A DNA stretch of 64,000 nt from Nannocystales bacterium (GCA_050633305.1 JBOEGF010000038.1:64001-128000); one strand, 5' to 3'; shown: positions 6,082-56,555, numbered from the stretch's first letter. Numbers and translations: made by a program. Notes: generated from the letters alone by a model not told the origin.

Positions 6082-7317
6082 ATGGATGGCTTTACGAACA
6101 TGAAGGCAGTGTTGATCCCTGCGGTGGCGTGCGTGGTGGCATGCGGCCCGAGCAGCGCAGACGAGACGGATTCGGGCGACGCCAGCACCACCGCTGGAGC
6201 GGAGACCAGTTCCACGACCGATACGACTCCTCCGCCGGGCACGAGCAGCTCGTCGTCGGGCGATGGAACATCGAGCGGAAGCTCGTCGGGAAGTTCTTCG
6301 GGTAGCTCTTCGGGTAGCGACTCCTCGGGCAGCGACTCTTCATCCACCGGAGAGCCGCCGCTTCCGAATCCATGCGGGGAGCCGGGCGACCTGACTGAGC
6401 TTTGGCGCGTGGCGGATGGGGACCGCGAGCGGGGCGAGTCCGTATCGGTCTCTGGTGAGCAAGTCGTGTGGGTCGCCACTGGATTCGGCGGGAGCACGCA
6501 GATCCGCGCTCACGATCTCGAGGGGGTGGAGTTGTGGTCTGCCGAGACATCGACGGATCTGGGAGAAGGGGGGCTCCGACTCCACAGTGTTGCTGCCGGA
6601 CCACTCACGGTCTTCGCGGGGACGGAGGACTACTCCACCGCCCGAATGATGGGACTCGATGGGAAGGGGGAGGTGGTCTTCGAGCATGTCTTCAAGGAAA
6701 TCGAACATGCCGGCGGAGTCGCGATCGGAAGCGACGGCAGCCTCCTGTTCGCAGGCAGCGACCAGGACCTGCGCTTCCGAACCTTCGACGAGCAAGGGCT
6801 GCAACTCTTCTCAGACTCGTATGACCACGGGGGCGACGAGTTCGTGGCGGATGCGACGCCAGACCCCGATGGCGGCTACTTTCTCGCGGCGCACAGCAAC
6901 AACAACGGGACGCCCCTGTTGGTCCGGCTGAGCTCTGATGGCGCCGTGGAGTGGGTCGCCCCGGTCGCGGGTCGGGAGGGCGCACAAGGTGTCGCTGCGG
7001 ATGGGGCGGGAGGCGCGTGGCTTGCGTTGGACACCGAGCTTGGGAACGGAGGGGCGCTCGACCACTATGACGCCGACGGGAACGTCATCGACACGATCGA
7101 ACTCGGTTTCTTCGCTCAACAAGTCGCGATCGGGCCCAGTGGCGATCTTGCGGTGTTGGGACGAGACCGCGTACAGCGTCGCAGCCTCGACGGTGACGTG
7201 ATCGCCTCCGCCGTGATCGAAGGCTATTGGGGACTGGACATGGAGATCGACGCTGCCTGCGACGTCTATGTCTCGGGCAGCGATGAAACCGGAGCATTCC
7301 TGGTCAAGCTCGACTGA
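6082..7317 (+). CDS. Lipoprotein with Ser/Thr/Gly linker and beta-propeller
   Basis: GGAG RBS; lipobox VVAC; poly-Ser linker; repeated GVA.D..G blades. Confidence 0.75.
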   Translation: MDGFTNMKAVLIPAVACVVACGPSSADETDSGDASTTAGAETSSTTDTTPPPGTSSSSSGDGTSSGSSSGSSSGSSSGSDSSGSDSSSTGEPPLPNPCGEPGDLTELWRVADGDRERGESVSVSGEQVVWVATGFGGSTQIRAHDLEGVELWSAETSTDLGEGGLRLHSVAAGPLTVFAGTEDYSTARMMGLDGKGEVVFEHVFKEIEHAGGVAIGSDGSLLFAGSDQDLRFRTFDEQGLQLFSDSYDHGGDEFVADATPDPDGGYFLAAHSNNNGTPLLVRLSSDGAVEWVAPVAGREGAQGVAADGAGGAWLALDTELGNGGALDHYDADGNVIDTIELGFFAQQVAIGPSGDLAVLGRDRVQRRSLDGDVIASAVIEGYWGLDMEIDAACDVYVSGSDETGAFLVKLD

Positions 7318-7362: not shown

Positions 7363-8673
7363 CTACAGCCCGTCGAGTCCGCCCGGCCCGGTGCCGTCGT
7401 AGCCGAACGTGTCGATGTCCACACCCATCATCTTCGAGATGCTGACCAGCAGCTTGGTGTGGGCTTCGTTCTCTCCACCCGCAGTCCCTCGATAATCGAG
7501 GCTGCGCCCGGTCTCCAGCTGCCCGCAAGCTCCGCCTGCCAGGACGAAGGGCATGTCGGAGTGATCGTGCAGGTTGCCGTCGTTGATCTCCGTGCACAGG
7601 AAGACGATGGAGTTGTCGAGCAGGCTTCCACCCGTGTCGGGGATGCTTCGCATGCGCTCCAGCAAGTACGTGAACTGCTCCATGAACCACCGCCGATGCG
7701 CGATGAAGTCGTTCGCGATCTCACCTGCGATGTCCGAGCCGTAGTGCGAAGCGTCGTGGTTGGCTCGCGTCGCGCCCGTCTCCGGAATCCGCGTGGGGCT
7801 GACCGCGTGGGACCAACTCAGCGTTCCCACCCGGGTCACGCCACAGCCGAGCGCCAAGGTCAGCTGGTCCATCTGGAGTTTGCCGATCAGTCCGAAGTTG
7901 TCCTCGCGGTGGTAGGTGGTGGGGTAGTTGTCGGCGTCGCTGTTGGCGTAGCCCTCTTCGTTCCAGACCACCTTGTCGCACGACGCGGTGATCTGGCCCG
8001 TGACGCGTTGCTCGACCTCCCGCAGCGCGTCGAGGTGCACATCCAGTTTCTCGCGCTCGGCGGATCCCAAGACCGACTGCAGGCGGTCGATGTCGTCCAT
8101 CGCGCTGTCCAGCACACTTCCCGCACGGAGCTGCTCGAGCGTGGGTCCTTTGCCTCCGCCGCCCTTGGCTGGGGTCAATCCGGAGAAGAGCCGGTCGAAC
8201 GCGTTGATCGGGTCGTCGTCGGGAGAGATGGGACTGCCGCTGATGTACGAGATCAGCTTGTCGCCGCCGCCTTGGAACGTGCTGCCAACGCCCAGTTGCA
8301 CCGAGCGGTGCGCCAGCCCGCCACCGGTCTCCTCCCCCAGGAAAACGTCGAGCGAGACGTCCGAGTCACCCGTGAGCACTTTGGCGACGCCGCCTTCGTG
8401 TGTTGCACCTCCGGCGTACATGTCGAGCCCGCGGACGAACACGAGGTCGTCCACAACCGGTGCCAACGGCTCCGACATCGACGGGAGCACCAGGTTTCCA
8501 CCGGAGCCCGTCGGGTGCCACAGCGAAGGGATGACCCCGTCTGGCACGTAGACGAACAGCGCCTTGACGTCGGAAGGCGCCGCGGCAGCGTTGCGTCCGA
8601 ACATCGTGCCAAGCGGCGTTGCGACCCCCGCGGAGGCGAGGAGTTGAAGCATGCGACGACGAGAGCGGTTCAT
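7363..8673 (-). CDS. DUF1552 domain protein with Tat signal
   Basis: MNRSRRRMLQ; LFVYVPDG; LDVHLDALREVE; GSLLDNSIV; H.H.DMPFVLAGG. Confidence 0.88.
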   Translation of the reverse strand: MNRSRRRMLQLLASAGVATPLGTMFGRNAAAAPSDVKALFVYVPDGVIPSLWHPTGSGGNLVLPSMSEPLAPVVDDLVFVRGLDMYAGGATHEGGVAKVLTGDSDVSLDVFLGEETGGGLAHRSVQLGVGSTFQGGGDKLISYISGSPISPDDDPINAFDRLFSGLTPAKGGGGKGPTLEQLRAGSVLDSAMDDIDRLQSVLGSAEREKLDVHLDALREVEQRVTGQITASCDKVVWNEEGYANSDADNYPTTYHREDNFGLIGKLQMDQLTLALGCGVTRVGTLSWSHAVSPTRIPETGATRANHDASHYGSDIAGEIANDFIAHRRWFMEQFTYLLERMRSIPDTGGSLLDNSIVFLCTEINDGNLHDHSDMPFVLAGGACGQLETGRSLDYRGTAGGENEAHTKLLVSISKMMGVDIDTFGYDGTGPGGLDGL

Positions 8674-10376
8674 TTCGAGTTCTCCGTGCGAAGGGTGAAG
8701 GATTCGAGTTGGGTGAGGTCGATGAAGGCCTCGTGCAGGTTGCCGCCGGACTCCTCGAGCCGCTCGCCCAGCTGTTCCAGCGTGCACTCGTCCTCGCTGA
8801 GGTCAGAGCGACCGCTGACGAAGTGGAAGTAGTGCTCCAACACGCAGGCTTGAACCTCTCCGTTGGCACCGAGCACTTGTCCAAGCTCGCGAGCACCGTT
8901 GAAGGGAACGGAGGTGGCGTTGCCCTCGGCGTCGATCAGCGCCTCGACGCTCCCGCTCTCATCGACGTTCATGCCGTTCTCCTGCGTTCGGAATGCGCCG
9001 ACACCATCGAAGCCTTCGAAGCCGAAGCCAATCGGGTCGATGTACGCGTGACACCCGGCGCAGGCGGGGTCGGCGGAGTGCTGGCCGTAGCGTTCACGCG
9101 TGGTCGCGTTCGGGTCGACGTCCGGTGGTGTCGCGTCGACATCTGGTGGCGGTGGGCTGAGTGGCTGACACATCAACCGCTCTCGAACGGTCACCCCGCG
9201 GCCGACCGGAGAGGTTTCGTTGGCATGCGCGTGCGAGGCGAGGAAACTGCCGAGGGTGAGCAGGCCGCCCCGCTCATAGCCATCGGGAAAGTCAACCCGC
9301 ACCAGCTCCTGCGAGCCGGGTGAGGGAAGTCCGTAGAAGCTCGCGAGCGCATCGTTGGCAAAGGTGTACTCCGCCGTGAACAGCTCCTCGACGCTCTGCT
9401 CCGAGTCGAACACCACGTGCTCCACGAAGCGTCGCTCCTCCTCGATCATCGCCAGACGAACCTCGTCGCTGAACTCCGGATACACCTCCAGGTCCTTGTT
9501 GGCGGATTGAAGCGTGGTCGTCTCCAGCCACTGGGTTGCGAACATGGTGATGCGCTCTCGACCGCGGGGGCTATCCAGCAAGCGGCGGGCCTGCTCGGCA
9601 ATGCCCTCGGCCTCGGACAGCGTGCCATCCGCCGCGGCGGCCATCAGCTCCGGGTCCGGCATGGAGCCGACGAACGTGTACGAGAGCAGCGATGCTGTTT
9701 CCCACTCCGTCAGGCGGAACAAGCCCGCGCCGACGGATTCACCCATCTCCGAGCGGTAGAGGAACCCGGGCGAGATGAGCATGGCCTCGATGCCCATCCG
9801 CATGCCTTCGTAGAAGTCACCGTCCGCCGCGTCGCTGTCGAACTGCGCCACGTAGTGCTCGACCTCGTCCTCGGTCAGCGGTCGTCGCAGCGCTCGAGCA
9901 CCAAAGCTCTCCACAAAGGAGCGGGCGCAACCCGGGTCGGCGGGCATGCATCCGGCCAACCCCGCCGCGTCCGAATCGACCGCAACCGTCGCCGCGGCCT
10001 GGGCCAGCGTCATGTACGCCTCGACGTGTCGCGCGGTCACCAGGGATGCGTCGGCGTTGTTGTCGTATCCCTCGACTCGCGGCTCCAGCGGAACGCTCGC
10101 CACATCCGGAGGTTCGATCCCCAGAAGGTCCGCCATCGTGTTCGCGTATTCGGCGCGGGTCAGGAGTCGGAGCGATCGGGGGCCCGGGGTTCCGTCCTCA
10201 CAGCTCAGCTCTGGGGTCTCGGCGTCCGAATCAGAGCCATCCCCCTCTTCGCCCACGCCATCCGTCGACGAGTCCGTGCTCTCGGCATCCTCGAGTTCGG
10301 CCGAGTTCCCCTCGTAGCAGCCCGAGAGGAGCCAAAGCCCCATGCACATGCTCCACGCCTGCTGTCGTCTGGCCAT
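8670..10376 (-). CDS. DUF1592/DUF1588/DUF1595-family heme-c lipoprotein
   Basis: Lipobox LSGC; LRLLTRAEYANT; LISPGFLYRSE; TSPVGRG; CAGCH; IDPIGFGFEGFD; 4-nt overlap with the DUF1552 gene. Confidence 0.9.
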   Translation of the reverse strand: MARRQQAWSMCMGLWLLSGCYEGNSAELEDAESTDSSTDGVGEEGDGSDSDAETPELSCEDGTPGPRSLRLLTRAEYANTMADLLGIEPPDVASVPLEPRVEGYDNNADASLVTARHVEAYMTLAQAAATVAVDSDAAGLAGCMPADPGCARSFVESFGARALRRPLTEDEVEHYVAQFDSDAADGDFYEGMRMGIEAMLISPGFLYRSEMGESVGAGLFRLTEWETASLLSYTFVGSMPDPELMAAAADGTLSEAEGIAEQARRLLDSPRGRERITMFATQWLETTTLQSANKDLEVYPEFSDEVRLAMIEEERRFVEHVVFDSEQSVEELFTAEYTFANDALASFYGLPSPGSQELVRVDFPDGYERGGLLTLGSFLASHAHANETSPVGRGVTVRERLMCQPLSPPPPDVDATPPDVDPNATTRERYGQHSADPACAGCHAYIDPIGFGFEGFDGVGAFRTQENGMNVDESGSVEALIDAEGNATSVPFNGARELGQVLGANGEVQACVLEHYFHFVSGRSDLSEDECTLEQLGERLEESGGNLHEAFIDLTQLESFTLRTENSK

Positions 10377-50066: not shown

Positions 50067-50867
50067 TCAGGGGCCGTGTTCCGCCTCAAGGGTCTTGAGC
50101 ATCGAGAACAGGAGCTCGTGCAGTCCCGCGCTGATCCCGTTCGCGAAAGGCGTTGCTCGGACCAGCGTCAGGCGGGCTTGCCATGGGTCGCCACGGTCGT
50201 TGAGGACGGGGAGCGCTGGGCCGCGCCGCGCTGCGGGCATGACTTCGCGAAAACTCGCGCATTGGCGACACACACCGTCCTTGTTGATCAGCGAACACAA
50301 TCCATCGAACGTCGCTTCCATCGCGCGACGGCCTTTGCTCAGCTCCCCGCGAAACACCGACTCGCTGAGGCTGAGTATGTTGGCGGCCTCTTTGTTGGTG
50401 AGGCCGACGACCTCGCGCAATACGATGGCCGCTGCCCGGGTGGGTACCAAGGAACGGCCAACACAGGAGAAGCAGAACGAGACGTGCTCGCGAACGTCAA
50501 ACGCGAACCCAGGATCCCGGGTCGCGTCCACGACCTGTTGGCGCCGCTCGTCGTCGGCTTCGCATTCCTCTTCGAGGTAGCGTTGACTGTAGGGCCGCCA
50601 GCGTTCCTGTTTGCGGAGGTGGTCGAGGCAGGTGCGGGTTGCGATCGTCAACAACCAGCCGCGAAAAGCACCCTCGTCGCGGAGTGTCGCGAAGCGTTCG
50701 AAGGCCTTCAACGTTGTCGCCTGGACGAGGTCCTCGGCGTCGGCCGCATGCCCGATGAGCCGTCGGACGTACGCTCGAAGCAACTCGTCGTGGGGCCGCA
50801 ACAGTACGTCGAAGCGCTCGCGAGCCTCGCGGGGAGGGCGGATGGGCTGTTCGTTGTGCTGCGACAT
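50067..50867 (-). CDS. ECF sigma factor with Cys-containing C-terminal extension
   Basis: DAEDLVQAT, FRGWLLTIATRTCLDHLR, CFSCV, CSLINKDGVCRQC. Confidence 0.9.
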   Translation of the reverse strand: MSQHNEQPIRPPREARERFDVLLRPHDELLRAYVRRLIGHAADAEDLVQATTLKAFERFATLRDEGAFRGWLLTIATRTCLDHLRKQERWRPYSQRYLEEECEADDERRQQVVDATRDPGFAFDVREHVSFCFSCVGRSLVPTRAAAIVLREVVGLTNKEAANILSLSESVFRGELSKGRRAMEATFDGLCSLINKDGVCRQCASFREVMPAARRGPALPVLNDRGDPWQARLTLVRATPFANGISAGLHELLFSMLKTLEAEHGP

Positions 50868-51672: not shown

Positions 51673-52281
51673 GTGAAAACCGATTTGCGTTCCATTCTCG
51701 AAGCAGCCGCACTCGCGGCCGCAACCCTCGTGTTCCCGGCCTGCGATAGTGAGGCCGGCGACGACACTCCGTCTGGTACCGCGGGCACAGAAGCCGGCTG
51801 CCCGGCTGCGACCGGTACTGACGCGGGCTGCCCCGGTTCGAGCTCGGGTTGCCCCGGCACGACGGCCGGTTGCCCTGCTGCCGAGCGCCCCGACGAAGTC
51901 GAAGACGTGCTCGCGGCGATCGAAGACGACAGCTACACCGGCTGGGAAGCCGAGTCCGCGGCACACCCACCGGTCGGAACCTCGCCCCACCCCGGAGAAG
52001 TCCGAACGTTTTTTAATCCGGAGCTGGCCGAGTCCATGGGCGCCGGTAACACCGAACACCCGCTGGGCTCAGCAGCGATCAAGGAGTCGTGGATGGACGG
52101 TGAGCTCGCCGGGTGGTTCATCGAGGTCAAGGTGGCTGAAGGCACTGGCCCCGAGACCTGGTACTGGTGGTCCGACCTTGCGGGCGTCGACGCGCTCGGC
52201 GGCGATGCCTCGGTGATGGGGTGTGTCGGTTGCCATGCCGCGGGTACCGACTACGTCACGACGGCGTACCCGCTCGAGTAG
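51673..52281 (+). CDS. Cytochrome P460-like heme-c lipoprotein with four GCP repeats
   Basis: Lipobox FPAC; PLGSAAIKE; WYW; C-terminal CVGCH. Confidence 0.7.
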   Translation: MKTDLRSILEAAALAAATLVFPACDSEAGDDTPSGTAGTEAGCPAATGTDAGCPGSSSGCPGTTAGCPAAERPDEVEDVLAAIEDDSYTGWEAESAAHPPVGTSPHPGEVRTFFNPELAESMGAGNTEHPLGSAAIKESWMDGELAGWFIEVKVAEGTGPETWYWWSDLAGVDALGGDASVMGCVGCHAAGTDYVTTAYPLE

Positions 52282-52409
52282 GCGTCGCGACCCGAGCGCC
52301 TGGGCCACGCTGGGCCAGGAATCTGTCGTGCGAAGCAAGAGGGAACTCGCGCTGCGGCGGACAGCCCCAACGGGGCTGCCGCAGTTCGCCCCCGAGTCGC
52401 GCATTTCGG

Positions 52410-52880
52410 TCATGTGCGATCCTGCGGGTCACGTTCAGGCCGTACGTCCACCGATGAGCCTGCCGTTCGTTGGCCTCGTCGAGATGGCTCGAACCGCGCG
52501 TTTGCATCGAAGAGGTGCGGCATCGTCTTGCGTAGGTCACCCAGCCTCTCGTCGAAGGTCATCGTGTAGCGCCCGGGGATGGGCCCCGTGTCCAGGAGCG
52601 GCGCGCAAGGGATCATGACGTGGTAGCCGGAGCCATCGCGCTCGAGAGGGCGCTGGTAGACGTAGAGGCGGTCTCGGTCAGCGTCTTGGATGAACAACAC
52701 GGTCGCTGTGCACGCGTCGTAGTTCTCCAGCCACAACGTGCCAGCGCGTCGCAGTCGGGCTTGCCGTTCGCGTTCGTCGGCGAGGTCGCGAGGACACAGC
52801 AGTGGGGCTTGCCAGACGTGGTGGCGCGGTAGTGAAGATGGAAGCTCGGTCACGGGGCGCATGTAGAAAATCTCAGACAT
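52410..52880 (-). CDS. Putative MbnC-like MNIO partner protein (short)
   Basis: Overlaps the stop of the MbnB homolog; AGTLWLENYDACTATVLFI weakly resembles the MbnC C-terminal domain (from memory). Confidence 0.5.
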   Translation of the reverse strand: MSEIFYMRPVTELPSSLPRHHVWQAPLLCPRDLADERERQARLRRAGTLWLENYDACTATVLFIQDADRDRLYVYQRPLERDGSGYHVMIPCAPLLDTGPIPGRYTMTFDERLGDLRKTMPHLFDANARFEPSRRGQRTAGSSVDVRPERDPQDRT

Positions 52881-53748
52881 CGCGGAGCTCCGGGGCGGGT
52901 CGAGTTTCGGCCGGTGGCCGTGTCAGGGCTTGGTTTAGGCGACGGAGGTCGTCGGCGACGTCGCTGGCAGTCTTCTCTTTCTCCCGTTCGAGGCAGATCG
53001 ACCGCAGTTGGCCCTGTCGGCCAAGAAGCGCGACCAGGTCCAGGCTCGCTGGGCTCAGTGGATCTCCGTGTGAGTCCCGCAGTTTGCCGTCGTGAGGGTC
53101 GAGGCGGTAACCGCCTACGTGAGCGTGGACTGGCGCCTGGCTGAGCAGCGAACTCCAGGCGTGCACCGGGTCTCCCCCGTTGGTTTCGGCGACGATCGCA
53201 TTGGAGACATCGAAGAGCAGCCCGGCTCCTGTTCGTCGGAGTACCTCACCGGCAAAGTCGGCCTGGCCCACTCCCTGTGGGCCAGCAGAGGCGATGTTCT
53301 CCAGCAACAGGCGACGGCCGGTGGCCTCTTGGTATCGCTGGACTCGCCGGCACGTCTGTTCGAGGTCTGCCTCATAGTCGAGGTCCTCCGGCTGCGCCAG
53401 GTAGCGGTCGCCGGCCACGGTACGCAGCAGGTGGTCGGAGACGTAGACGGGATCCAAGGCACGAATGTGCGTGGACATGCAGTCGAGAATCCGGTCGAGG
53501 CGTTCGGCGGAGGTGTGGACGAATCCGGTCCACATGACGTGTAGTGCGACCCGTGGGGCGAGCGCCTCGAAGCTTCGAGCAATGACGTCGGGATCGAGGT
53601 GGAGGTAGTTGTCCCAGAGAATCTCGACGAACGTCAGTGCGTCCTGACGGCCGGCCATGGCCACCGCATCGGCGTACAGGCTGAAGTCGGTGAGGTTATT
53701 GACGCTCAGGGTTGCTTCGGTCGGCGAGGATGCGCTGAACTCGTTCAT
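52873..53748 (-). CDS. mbnB: MbnB-like multinuclear non-heme iron oxidase (MNIO/DUF692)
   Basis: VEILWDNYLHLDP, ALHVM, PVYVSDH, LLEN, LFDVSNA, HVGGY, DSH and LER follow the MbnB motif order. Confidence 0.85.
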   Translation of the reverse strand: MNEFSASSPTEATLSVNNLTDFSLYADAVAMAGRQDALTFVEILWDNYLHLDPDVIARSFEALAPRVALHVMWTGFVHTSAERLDRILDCMSTHIRALDPVYVSDHLLRTVAGDRYLAQPEDLDYEADLEQTCRRVQRYQEATGRRLLLENIASAGPQGVGQADFAGEVLRRTGAGLLFDVSNAIVAETNGGDPVHAWSSLLSQAPVHAHVGGYRLDPHDGKLRDSHGDPLSPASLDLVALLGRQGQLRSICLEREKEKTASDVADDLRRLNQALTRPPAETRPAPELRDV

Positions 53749-54832
53749 GGACGTAGTTTCGGAAGCTGTGCAGGGGATCGACGATGCTCGCTCCGGCTCG
53801 AGCCAAGGCGTGCTCCCCGAAGCTCGGGATCTCGTGCGGCGCAGCTTTGCGCTCGAGGATGAATTGGTCTGCCCACTCACCCACGATGCTGCGAAAGAGC
53901 GACGGACCCAGCAGAGCGTGCAGCTGTGGTTCTCTGCGGGCGAAGATCAAGTTGTTCAGCAGACCCACCGCGACTCGCTCCTCGTCGACCTCAACTGGGG
54001 TTCGTCGTCGCGTGTTGGCCACCAACTCGGCGACACGGTCGAACTCGGCGCGATAGCCTTCGGGTCGTTCGGCCCACACGGGGTCGGTGTGCTCGACGAC
54101 CACGGTCAGTGGCTGGTCCGCCACGCGGAGCACGGCGCATAGCAACTCGAGGACCTCTTCGGCTAGGGGCTCACCATGGGCGTCATGCCAGACGCCTCGA
54201 CGGTCCTTCTTCACCCCGGACAAGTGGATGCAACTGACAAGGTCGAGGTCGACGAAGCCGAGCATCATGGTCGACGAGATGCCGCAGTTGCGGGCGTGAA
54301 CACACAGGTGGGCGAGATCGAGGACCATGGAGATGCCCTCGGTGGCACACAACGCGTTGGCCAAAGCCCAGGCACGTCGAATCGCACCCAGGTCCACGTC
54401 GTAGAAGTTTGCGTTCTCGATCAGAATCGGCCACGGCAAGCGTTCACGGGCCGTGTCGAAAAACCGCCGGGCGGCGCGATCGTTGTCCTCGGTCGAGACA
54501 TACGCGGGCCCAGCTCCAAGCCAGCCCATGCCCGAACGGTATGGACCGCACAGGTGCACGCCGATGGAGTCTACGCATGGCGGCGCGCGCTCCAACACGT
54601 CGTCGAGGAAGGCGTCTTGAATGGGTGGTCGTTCGCAGACGGGCGCTCGGGACAGGTGCACAGAGCGGTGTTTGATGGAGGCGAGAGCCTGGCCCTTCTC
54701 ACAGCCGATCGCGTTCCACCCCGCTTCGAGATGTTCGACATACGGCGGCAAGTCGAGATGACCGTCGACGATGGCCGGGGTGTAGCCACAGCCAATGCGG
54801 TGTGTGACCGATTGGGAGAAAGGGGCGGGCAT
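53696..54832 (-). CDS. Second MNIO (DUF692), MbnX/MovX-like, with C-terminal extension
   Basis: SVHL, GVHL, LIEN, LDLAH, IHLSG, HDAH, VVEH; about 100-aa helical tail. Confidence 0.8.
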   Translation of the reverse strand: MPAPFSQSVTHRIGCGYTPAIVDGHLDLPPYVEHLEAGWNAIGCEKGQALASIKHRSVHLSRAPVCERPPIQDAFLDDVLERAPPCVDSIGVHLCGPYRSGMGWLGAGPAYVSTEDNDRAARRFFDTARERLPWPILIENANFYDVDLGAIRRAWALANALCATEGISMVLDLAHLCVHARNCGISSTMMLGFVDLDLVSCIHLSGVKKDRRGVWHDAHGEPLAEEVLELLCAVLRVADQPLTVVVEHTDPVWAERPEGYRAEFDRVAELVANTRRRTPVEVDEERVAVGLLNNLIFARREPQLHALLGPSLFRSIVGEWADQFILERKAAPHEIPSFGEHALARAGASIVDPLHSFRNYVHERVQRILADRSNPERQ

Positions 54833-54864
54833 GGGCAACTCTGCGATACAGGCGGGGGGGCGCA

Positions 54865-54884
54865 GGACGCTCGGGCGAGCGTCC
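54865..54884. other. GC-rich hairpin downstream of the precursor gene
   Basis: GGACGCTC-gggc-GAGCGTCC, no U tract. Confidence 0.6.
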
Positions 54885-54906
54885 CACGCGGTCGTCGCGG
54901 TAGGGC

Positions 54907-55083
54907 CTACGCGACCGTGATGATGTAGTCGCCGCAGGTTGCAGGAGCCGACACGGGGACCGCTGGCGCTGCCGCTCTGGCACCCCCGACCACGGCCTGG
55001 AGCACTGCGGTGTCGAGAGAGTCGAGCGTCCGGGTTTGACGGTCGTCGTTGCGGGGGCTCTTGTTATTGTTCTTGTTGGTCAT
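54907..55083 (-). CDS. RiPP precursor peptide, 58 aa: MTNKNNNKSPRNDDRQTRTLDSLDTAVLQAVVGG-ARAAAPAVPVSAPATCGDYIITVA
   Basis: Translated by hand (not in the ORF track); A-rich leader with AAGAG; double-Gly leader motif; single Cys in TCG; directly upstream of the MNIO genes. Confidence 0.85.
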   Translation of the reverse strand: MTNKNNNKSPRNDDRQTRTLDSLDTAVLQAVVGGARAAAPAVPVSAPATCGDYIITVA

Positions 55084-55110
55084 CGTTGTTGCTCTTCGTT
55101 TGTTGTTGGT

Positions 55111-55611
55111 TCAGGGAGTGAGCAGCCGCTTGGATAGCCACAGCTCGTCGTGGAATTTTCCGCCCAGCATGAGCGCGTCGCAGCGCCGCCCCTCGACCTC
55201 GAACCCCAGGCCGCGGTACAGCTCCAGGGCGCGTAGGTTGTCTTCGCGGACGGTCAGCTCGACCCGTCGGATTCCGTTGCGAGTGGCATGGGCCAGCGCG
55301 GTCTCGAACAGCCGCCGCCCGATGCCGAATCCCCAGTGCTGCTGGAGCACGCCGATCCACGCGCGCGCCACGTGGGCGTTGCGCTGCAATCCGCCCCGCT
55401 GCATTCCGCAGAGCGCGACGATGTGGCACCCGTCGAGGGCAACGAACGTCCACGCCGTGGAATGCTCCAGCATGCTGCGTGTGCTGGTCTCCGAGACCTC
55501 CTCTGGGGCAGGGAGGAGGAGGTCCGTCTGTCGAGCCAGAGCCTGGCGCAACTCGAAGATGGGCAGTGTCTCTGCCGAGTTGGCGAGTCGGTATTCGAAA
55601 CTGGGCGTCAT
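55111..55611 (-). CDS. GNAT N-acetyltransferase
   Basis: IGVLQQHWGFGIGRRL, LTVREDNLRALELYRGLGF; ends 27 nt upstream of the precursor. Confidence 0.9.
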   Translation of the reverse strand: MTPSFEYRLANSAETLPIFELRQALARQTDLLLPAPEEVSETSTRSMLEHSTAWTFVALDGCHIVALCGMQRGGLQRNAHVARAWIGVLQQHWGFGIGRRLFETALAHATRNGIRRVELTVREDNLRALELYRGLGFEVEGRRCDALMLGGKFHDELWLSKRLLTP

Positions 55612-56030
55612 GGGTTCTTGCGGGCGGGCATAGAGGCCCTCTACGTCCACGCTCGAACTTCTGACGCGGCAAATCGACGAAGCGCAGCCTGCGACAGGTG
55701 GTAGGCGATCGTAGACGCGGTGGCGCAAAGCAAGCGCCGCCGGCTGAGGATGGCGGCGTCGCTCAAGGCAAACGCATCCCTCGCTACGCTCTGCATCGAC
55801 CGCACCGGGGGGAGCGACGGTGGGGCGAAGTCTGTTGGAGGCTGGCCCGGTGTTTTGGTGCCACGGCCCCAGACCCTCCGAGATGTGTGTACCCGCGAAC
55901 TGCACTGCGCGACGCAGTGGTCCCGGGTGCAAGCGTTTCGACCGGCTGTTCTCGGCGCGAGAACGACGGGTTCTCAATCTGTGGCGTTGTCCACGTCCCC
56001 TCCTGGGCTCAACCTGGAACGGAGGTCGAG

Positions 56031-56555
56031 ATGAACAGCGAATCGAACAACGAGTTTCCAGTGCAGCCCATCCGGGGCAAACATCGGATCGAGGCGTCCA
56101 TTGAGGTCGACGCGCCCATCGAGGCGGCGTGGGCAGTGATCGCCGACTTCAACGACATCTACCTGTGGGCGCCCTCCGTCGAGGACTCCCGCGGTATCAC
56201 GGCATCGCAACGCTGCGTGGGGGCAGGACGGCAGTGCACGATCAAGGGGTTCGGAAAGATCGACGAGGTCATCACCGATTGGAAGGAAGGCCGCGAGTTC
56301 ACCTACGCCGTGGGGGCCCTCGGACCGTTCAAGGGGTCGCGCAGCCGCTGGCAGCTGGAGAGCCTGAGTCCAACCCGGAGCCGCCTGACGCTACAGCTCT
56401 CGTACGACATGCGAATGGGATTCCTGGGGGACGCGATGAACGCCCTCGTGATGCGTCGGAAGCTGCAACAGTCGCTGGACGGGATCTTGGAGCCGTTCAA
56501 GCGCCGGGTCGAGACCGGTGAGGTTCTGCGCCCCGTTCGCTCCGCGGCGGCCTGA
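56031..56555 (+). CDS. SRPBCC family protein
   Basis: GGAGG RBS; IEVDAPIEAAWAVIADF...VGAGRQC. Confidence 0.85.
   Translation: MNSESNNEFPVQPIRGKHRIEASIEVDAPIEAAWAVIADFNDIYLWAPSVEDSRGITASQRCVGAGRQCTIKGFGKIDEVITDWKEGREFTYAVGALGPFKGSRSRWQLESLSPTRSRLTLQLSYDMRMGFLGDAMNALVMRRKLQQSLDGILEPFKRRVETGEVLRPVRSAAA

Follow-up and report, generated by a model that had tools for sequence, protein, structure and literature searches.

The 58-residue peptide encoded at positions 54907..55083 on the minus strand of the window is the product of a real and conserved gene. The window is the whole stretch of DNA that was analysed, 64,000 nucleotides from a Nannocystales bacterium, and lies on contig C38. The gene very probably encodes a RiPP precursor. 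In the preferred reading, it would be the A-gene of a small RiPP operon that also contains two MNIO genes, here called MNIO-1 and MNIO-2, and the gene of a partner protein. The full reading, which adds the site of modification, a second step carried out by MNIO-1, removal of the leader at a double glycine and export, is given a probability of about 0.6. The locus is most likely a rare myxobacterial variant of a methanobactin-related pathway and not an artefact.

Probable Precursor Peptide Gene

The open reading frame runs from an ATG to a TAG and contains 58 codons before the stop. It is present as quoted in an earlier, sequence-only reading of the window, which mentioned neither its minus-strand orientation nor the second, unrelated MNIO. 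The assignment is based on the translation, the GC content by codon position, the homologues and an alignment of the window-type peptides (alignment A2). The translation and the alignment divide the peptide into a leader of residues 1–34, which ends in V-V-G-G (54982–55083), and a core of 24 residues, 35–58 (54910–54981). The sole cysteine, Cys50, is in the core and is encoded by a TGC codon at 54934–54936. A Shine-Dalgarno-like hexamer, GAAGAG, was read from the sequence at 55092..55097, 8 nt from the ATG. All of these features are on the minus strand.

The 5' region of the gene is A-rich in GC-rich DNA, as the same reading had noted. The first 20 codons have a GC content of 0.40 at first positions, 0.40 at second positions and 0.85 at third positions, compared with 0.65 for the window. 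Over the whole open reading frame, the corresponding values are 0.61, 0.53 and 0.80. The third-position value is like those of the neighboring genes (0.73–0.84) and above those of the three open reading frames that overlap the peptide gene (0.57–0.66), and the frame therefore has a coding-type codon bias. An identical 58-aa protein, with NCBI as its source, is already recorded in the protein collection.

On the 5' side, the gene is preceded by a GNAT acetyltransferase gene (55111..55611, minus strand; PF00583, E 8e-14), the stop codon of which is 27 nt before the peptide ATG. The GNAT gene may be co-transcribed with the peptide gene and is at most a possible member of the cluster. On the 3' side, a spacer of 65 nt separates the peptide gene from MNIO-1. 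RNA folding places a strong stem-loop of 13 pairs with a 4-nt loop within this spacer (54860..54889, minus strand) and a smaller hairpin across the stop codon of the peptide gene (54894–54915, minus strand). The 83 nt from 54833 to 54915 have a folding energy of -39.1 kcal/mol (z -3.46), which is equalled by one of 200 shuffled sequences. The spacer stem-loop is not followed by a T-run and is not picked up by a terminator scan; it likely serves to attenuate or stabilise the transcript past the precursor gene. In the scan of positions 52000–56200, there is no promoter-like site, and the single terminator-like site is inside MNIO-2 on the opposite strand.

Conservation of the Peptide

In a phmmer search of 1,835,955,588 representative sequences, the peptide has two matches at E ≤ 0.001. 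These are P0011 (57 aa, E 1.4e-10) and P0012 (60 aa, E 4.5e-8). A profile search built on these matches adds a third distinct homologue, P0015, of 69 aa. The three distinct relatives are 46–54% identical to the window peptide. A word-indexed search returns a 98% identical twin, P0002, as its sole match. There is no paralogue of the peptide in its own genome (best other match, E 0.24) and no copy in any of 71 other genomes of the order. One DNA data set, a microbial-mat metagenome, is listed as carrying the locus, and no RNA data set is.

In the alignment, the window-type peptides all begin in register at the N-terminus. The leader is amphipathic, and its consensus L-x-S-[LI]-x-x-x-D-S-x-L-L-x-[AS]-[IV]-[VI]-G-G-A is kept in all of them, and the shorter motif ...L-x4-L-x2-[VI]-x-G-G is common to all relatives. 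A variable, Ala/Pro-rich stretch of 7–8 residues follows the G-G-A and precedes the core motif. The core motif, P-V-[SA]-A-P-A-T-C-[GN]-[DS]-Y-I-[IML], is present in every homologue. Beyond it, the C-terminal tails differ (TVA, TLGG, TMGG and IMDESPR), and a C-terminal Asn is not conserved among the window-type peptides.

The sequence-only reading would have been contradicted by an unconserved frame or by the loss of the GG and TCG motifs in homologous loci. Three distinct homologues were found, and both the GG and the A-T-C are kept in all window-type peptides. The glycine after the cysteine is less constant: it is present in four of the five and is replaced by Asn in P0012.

The frequency of the GG motif itself was estimated with the pattern [LIVMF]x4[LIVMF]xx[LIVMF]xG[GAS] in 58-aa windows of coding-like open reading frames from the same genome. 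The pattern occurs in 637 of 38,974 such windows (1.6%), and the motif alone is therefore weak evidence. It is the conservation of the peptide, at the E-values given above, that exceeds chance. No NCBIfam model, the curated MbnA model included, matches the peptide at E ≤ 0.01. When the threshold is relaxed to E ≤ 10, the only match is a chance-level one to a mannosyltransferase model (E 0.014).

Operon Organization

The peptide gene is followed, on the same strand, by MNIO-1, the MbnB-like MNIO-2 and the partner gene, in that order. The three enzyme genes overlap one another. The overlap between MNIO-1 and MNIO-2 is 53 nt, with the ATG at 53748 as the start of MNIO-2, and that between MNIO-2 and the partner gene is 8 nt. 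The two MNIOs are not recent duplicates of one another; in BLASTP, they align with an E-value of 0.007 over 35 residues.

The three downstream genes travel together. In a Polyangiales MAG (locus L044), a 4 kb contig contains homologues of MNIO-1 (38% identity), MNIO-2 (42%) and the partner (38%), arranged as in the window. This contig ends inside MNIO-1, which is cut at residue 58, and thus before the precursor region. The missing 5' part of the locus is on no other contig of that MAG.

The peptide and MNIO-1 appear to travel together in two other organisms. The evidence for this is good but indirect and comes from equal longest-contig sizes. The longest contig is 7878 bp for both P0011 and the MNIO-1 homologue P0005, and it is 8049 bp for both P0012 and P0013, a member of the P0004 cluster. 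P0015 is on a contig of 1683 bp. The rule of equal sizes holds in a control with a known answer, in which P0001 and P0003 both list 161,971, the size of contig C38.

There is no transporter, peptidase or copper gene among the 37 window proteins (E ≤ 1e-5) or the 11 open reading frames of the cluster region (E ≤ 0.01). MbnT, MbnP and MbnH genes are likewise absent from the window, as are copper genes. The remaining content of the window consists of regulators, kinases, hydrolases and secreted FG-GAP proteins.

Several other genes of the window were recorded in passing. A predicted lipoprotein of 202 aa (51673–52281, plus strand) converges on the end of the operon. It has four G-C-P repeats in the N-terminal part and a C-x-x-C-H near its C-terminus, matches no Pfam or NCBIfam model, and could be a metal- or haem-binding protein. 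At 50067–50867 (minus strand), 1.5 kb past the operon end on the same strand, is the gene of an ECF-type sigma-70 factor that has a long C-terminal extension and could be a regulator. A gene pair with DUF1552 (HXXSHH) and DUF1592/1588/1595/1587/1585 domains (7363–10376, minus strand) is unrelated to the peptide locus.

MNIO-2 and the Partner Protein

MNIO-2 (52873..53748, minus strand) is an MbnB-like protein of 291 aa if it starts at the ATG at 53748. This start is uncertain, and the open frame reaches back to a GTG at 53880. The protein matches PF05114 at E 4e-25. It scores 160 bits against the MbnB equivalog TIGR04159, below the cut-off of 325, and MbnB is the best NCBIfam family for all five members of the MNIO-2 clade. 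MNIO-2 matches the solved MbnB structures 7dz9, 7tcr and 7fc0 at E-values of about 1e-29.

The iron ligands of MbnB are H54, H90, E133, D163, N166, H192, D208, H210 and E239, as described in PMC9060507. In the alignment with 7tcr_A, these nine positions correspond to H70, H106, E150, D180, N183, H210, D225, H227 and E254 of MNIO-2. All nine are invariant among the five members of the clade (alignment A4). MNIO-2 therefore looks catalytically competent.

The partner gene (52410..52880, minus strand) encodes a protein of 156 aa that is recognised by its homologues in related loci and belongs to no known family. Searches of Pfam, NCBIfam and PDB sequences return no match for it, whether it is used singly or as a five-member profile. 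None of the five members matches any NCBIfam model, even at E ≤ 10, and they carry no signature of MbnC, DUF2063 or another known MNIO partner. The AF2 model of the partner has a pLDDT of 39.2, which is too low for a fold comparison, and a look-up in the Atlas gives only matches with TM below 0.5. Of 400 other genomes drawn from across the phylum, one contains a member of the partner family. Recognition by an MbnBC-type pair, as proposed from the sequence, is thus supported on the side of MbnB, by the downstream MbnB-like enzyme and its nine ligands, and not on the side of MbnC.

MNIO-1

MNIO-1 (53696..54832, minus strand) is a protein of 378 aa. Its Pfam match and its AF2 model divide it into a TIM-barrel MNIO domain (residues about 8–280) and a mostly helical C-terminal extension (284–371). 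It matches PF05114 with E 1.9e-15 and 57 bits, against a cut-off of 25, and is a member of the MNIO superfamily. The AF2 model has a pLDDT of 88.4 and contains the barrel and a helical extension of about 90 residues. In a Foldseek search with this model, TglH and MbnB are the first matches (E 1e-11 to 1e-9). For the Atlas model of MNIO-1, the best alignment is to a cluster named ChrH, over residues 8–278, which form the barrel, at a TM of 0.64. In a Pfam search with the C-terminal 99 residues, the only match is a chance-level one to HypD (E 0.12).

MNIO-1 does not fall within the curated NCBIfam MNIO subfamilies. It scores 57 bits against ApyH (cut-off 400), 45 against BufB, 34 against HvfB and 22 against ChrH (cut-off 600). 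This weak pattern is common to all eight members of the MNIO-1 clade, none of which scores above an equivalog cut-off. In alignment A1, the invariant residues of MNIO-1 are H59, H93, E139, D172, H175, H203, D217, H219 and E247, and they appear to follow the usual order of MNIO ligands.

The MNIO-1 clade is rare. In a search of 5.8 billion clusters, there are seven homologues at E ≤ 1e-10. Among GTDB species genomes, MNIO-1 is present in one, that of L044. It has no match at E ≤ 1e-30 in 399 other genomes of the class, and its profile has none in the JGI metagenomes. Within the order, there are only distant MNIO matches, with 25–35% identity over parts of the protein.

Related Loci without MNIO-1

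In a search of the class with MNIO-2, the matches include three genomes of one other Polyangia genus (L058–L060), with 38–39% identity. A search with the partner profile adds six soil-metagenome contigs (L061–L066). In L044 and L058–L060, the MbnB-like gene is followed by that of a partner homologue (alignment A3), and in L061–L066 a partner homologue is matched at the 3' end. MNIO-1 is absent from the stretches of these sister loci that were read.

A gene for a peptide of 67–93 aa is directly before the MbnB-like gene in L058–L060 and in five of the six soil contigs (L062–L066). In L066, only the 3' end of the peptide gene is on the contig. In L061, the contig extends only 74 nt upstream of the MbnB-like gene, and no peptide open reading frame is listed there. 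In L058 and L059, the TGA stop codon of the peptide gene overlaps the GTG start codon of the MbnB-like gene. In L060, there is a 4-nt overlap between the end of the peptide gene and the ATG of the MbnB-like gene. The upstream gene in the sister-clade loci is not a GNAT gene; in the translations, by eye, it is an open reading frame like that of an alpha/beta-hydrolase.

In L058, L059, L060, L062, L063 and L065, the gene immediately 5' of the MbnB-like gene encodes a peptide with a GG or GA leader and three cysteines. The sister leader is unlike that of the window type and reads ...F-I-E-L-D-E-L-A-L-S-L-I-N-G-G. The peptides of L058–L060 and L062–L066 share the core pattern ...DPD[KT][TA]PSGE...C[TSG]QVFA[QG]GHCS..CV..LL.DWKRLKGQQ, which contains the three cysteines. 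L062 contains two precursor genes, one before the MbnB-like gene (6436–6657, plus strand) and one after the partner gene (7960–8241, plus strand). The second encodes a longer leader with two GG sites.

The description of the window peptide as chimeric, a double-glycine leader fused to a methanobactin-like core, is too strong. Seven sister-clade peptides also have GG or GA leaders, and a leader of this type is therefore normal for the clade rather than a one-off fusion.

Double-Glycine Leaders and C39 Transporters

The leaders of 12 peptides, five of the window type and seven of the sister type, were compared. The leader ends in G-G in 11 of them and in G-A in one (L063). Double-glycine leaders end in G-G, G-A or G-S, so that GA is a permitted variant, and the C39 domain of LahT docks leader positions -4, -7 and -12 (PMC6363468). 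In all 12 peptides, these three positions are hydrophobic. For L062b, the script took the earlier GG, and a later IHGG also fits by eye. The leader of the window peptide has V at -4, L at -7, L at -12 and V at -8. Across the window family, position -4 is V or I, position -7 is L, and position -12 is L or I. The Glu at -8 of the ComA consensus (PMC6363468) is present in none of the 12 peptides, in which this position is V, L, A or D. The leader motif of C39 peptidases and PCATs, named in the sequence-only reading, is thus borne out at the LahT contact positions. The same spacing in two dissimilar leader families argues for function.

There is no C39 match on contig C38, which contains the window. 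The genome encodes five C39 domains, on contigs C10, C14 and C39. A search of the genome for a C39 ABC transporter, suggested earlier as a check, therefore finds five on other contigs but none in the window of 64 kb. There is also no C39 gene in the sister loci L058 (12.5 kb) or L062 (12.8 kb). Each of the four other carrier genomes that were searched has two to four C39 matches, none of which is near the cluster; the closest one in G117 is at a distance of about 104 kb. The presence of C39 domains in all four carrier genomes, unlinked to the cluster, neither supports nor refutes processing by a PCAT.

At least two of the PCATs in the genome are beside other GG-leader, cysteine-containing peptides with similar N/K-rich N-termini, and both the PCAT machinery and this style of leader are therefore in use in this organism. 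Two small open reading frames with GG leaders, C10:604755–604961 (minus strand) and C14:445843–446016 (plus strand), are within 9 kb of C39 ABC transporter genes. Both probably encode the cognate PCAT substrates.

Alternative Explanations

The alternative that survives best also takes the peptide as an MNIO substrate and differs in giving the G-G no role as a PCAT signal. It is possible, and clearly less probable than the preferred reading. The amphipathic leader helix would instead be a handle for the partner, for the C-terminal domain of MNIO-1 or for both, and another protease would cut. The stretch GGAR(A/T)AA would then correspond to the IGRAAA or AGRTGM stretch of MbnA. MbnA leaders are recognised by MbnC (PMC8888699, PMC9060507), and the MbnA sequences given in PMC8888699 include ...VIGRAAA before LCG in M. 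trichosporium and ...VAGRTGMRCA in R. rubra. At the comparable place, the window family carries VVGGARAAA, IVGGARTAA, IVGGAKSSA and VIGGAGDAM. This resemblance is short and Ala-rich, however, and may be due to chance. The lack of a C39 gene near any locus read is also congruent with a cut by another protease. PCATs, however, often process substrates that are encoded elsewhere in the genome. The C39-type spacing also weighs on the other side, as it is found in every peptide compared and in two leader families that are otherwise unlike, and the GA of L063 is a change that double-glycine leaders permit.

A peptide that is secreted without modification, bacteriocin-like or signalling, and is a mere neighbor of the MNIO genes would also have a canonical GG-type leader, and other GG peptides are beside PCATs in this genome. 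This explanation is improbable. In two other organisms, MNIO-1 homologues seem to accompany the peptide, and the sister peptides are translationally coupled to the MbnB-like gene through the TGA/GTG overlap. In addition, the invariant part of the peptide is the cysteine-containing motif, and no PCAT is nearby.

A chance, untranslated open frame, suggested by the shortness of the ORF, its reported lack of annotation and the 1.6% background of the motif, is already contradicted by the homologues found among 1.84 billion proteins, their conserved start positions, the Shine-Dalgarno-like site and a GC3 of 0.80–0.85 even in the A-rich part, and it can be set aside.

Comparison with Known Systems

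The closest known system is the methanobactin-like cluster of Vibrio group V, which consists of MbnA/MovA, MbnB, MbnC and a second MNIO, MovX. Among solved structures, MNIO-2 is matched best by the MbnB chain of 7dz9, which we take, by elimination, to be the MbnB of V. caribbenthicus. Both systems have a short precursor with a single cysteine in a T-C-G that is followed by an aromatic residue. The likeness to a MovA-type core, proposed from the peptide sequence, agrees with the MbnA of V. caribbenthicus, in which the core is TCGAFNK (...MTCGAFNK; PMC8888699), compared with TCGDYI here. Both also have two MNIOs, one of which contains an extra domain and is thought to act without a partner (PMC12452194, PMC11252979).

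The two systems differ in their leaders, their partners and the second MNIO. The leader here is a GG-type helix of 31–43 aa with an Ala/Pro-rich spacer of 13–15 residues, whereas that of the Vibrio precursor is a Lys/Val strand of 16 aa. The partner here has no MbnC signature, and the second MNIO is outside the curated subfamilies and is placed first. MovX, which has an RRE-like added domain, works without a partner and targets the C-terminus of the peptide (PMC12452194, PMC11252979), where it attacks the C-terminal Asn (PMC12452194). The window family has no conserved C-terminal Asn.

The locus resembles canonical MbnA/MbnB/MbnC systems in the nine iron ligands of MNIO-2, in a partner gene directly after the MNIO gene and in the small residue after the cysteine in four of the five window-type peptides. 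It is unlike them in having one cysteine rather than two or more and in an MNIO-2 score below the equivalog cut-off. The gene order also departs from mbnA-mbnB-mbnC, as MNIO-1 is between the peptide gene and the MbnB-like gene and the last gene has no MbnC signature.

Compared with GG peptides processed by PCATs, the leader spacing is the same, while the Glu at -8 and an adjacent cognate PCAT are missing and cleavage is a prediction. In the ChrH family, all members have a C-terminal helical bundle and are active without a partner (PMC13056109). MNIO-1 resembles ChrH/DybH in that its barrel is followed by an extension of about 90 residues, most of it helical. It is unlike them in its ChrH score of 22 bits, against a cut-off of 600, and in its substrate, which lacks the two-cysteine CPxCGxG motif. 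MNIO genes that are followed by a second MNIO, and partners with no Pfam signature, are mentioned in general terms in PMC12452194. The literature searches brought up no publication in which MbnB-like enzymes are associated with double-glycine leaders or in which the Polyangia family is described; the supplements of PMC12452194, which possibly list such clusters, were outside their scope.

Proposed Pathway

We infer the chemistry of the pathway, the cleavage site and export route of its peptide and any metal binding by its product, as follows; a chalkophore role would be a further possibility. In the first step of the preferred reading, MNIO-2 and the 156-aa partner would carry out a four-electron oxidation of Cys50 to an oxazolone/thioamide or to a 5-thiooxazole. 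The conversion of cysteine to oxazolone/thioamide by MbnBC is the precedent (PMC8888699, PMC9060507). The product may instead be a 5-thiooxazole, in line with recent product reassignments reported in PMC12668002. Either product of Cys50 would be an N,S metal-binding group.

The second step is more speculative. MNIO-1 would probably act without a partner, its own helical domain replacing a separate one, and MovX and ChrH/DybH, which have an added domain and no partner, would be the precedents. It could introduce a second oxidative modification, either within the invariant Y-I or C-terminal to it, and the variable tail may be lost. The leader would then be removed after the G-G, at G34, with one of the genome's five C39 ABC transporters, acting in trans, as the most likely protease, and the Ala/Pro-rich core would be exported.

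A wider proposal is tentative. The peptide may be the founding member of an undescribed Polyangia RiPP family of minimal, single-heterocycle, methanobactin-like peptides with double-glycine leaders, in which a single short core is modified successively by two unrelated MNIOs. In that case, MNIO-1 would be a new clade with a built-in recognition domain and unseen MNIO chemistry on Tyr-Ile or on a disposable tail, and the 156-aa protein would represent a partner of a new type.

The range of unusual peptide chemistry and of copper-binding natural products traced to MNIO enzymes is growing fast. The locus is a compact system of four genes, in which a 24-residue core with one cysteine is accompanied by an MbnB-like enzyme, a partner without an assigned family and, as the second MNIO, a member of a very rare clade. 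Leaders of the double-glycine type are the rule in one MbnB-like clade, which bears on how such precursors are recognised and exported without a linked transporter gene. A product that proved to be a one-heterocycle chelator would rank among the smallest methanobactin-like ligands described so far.
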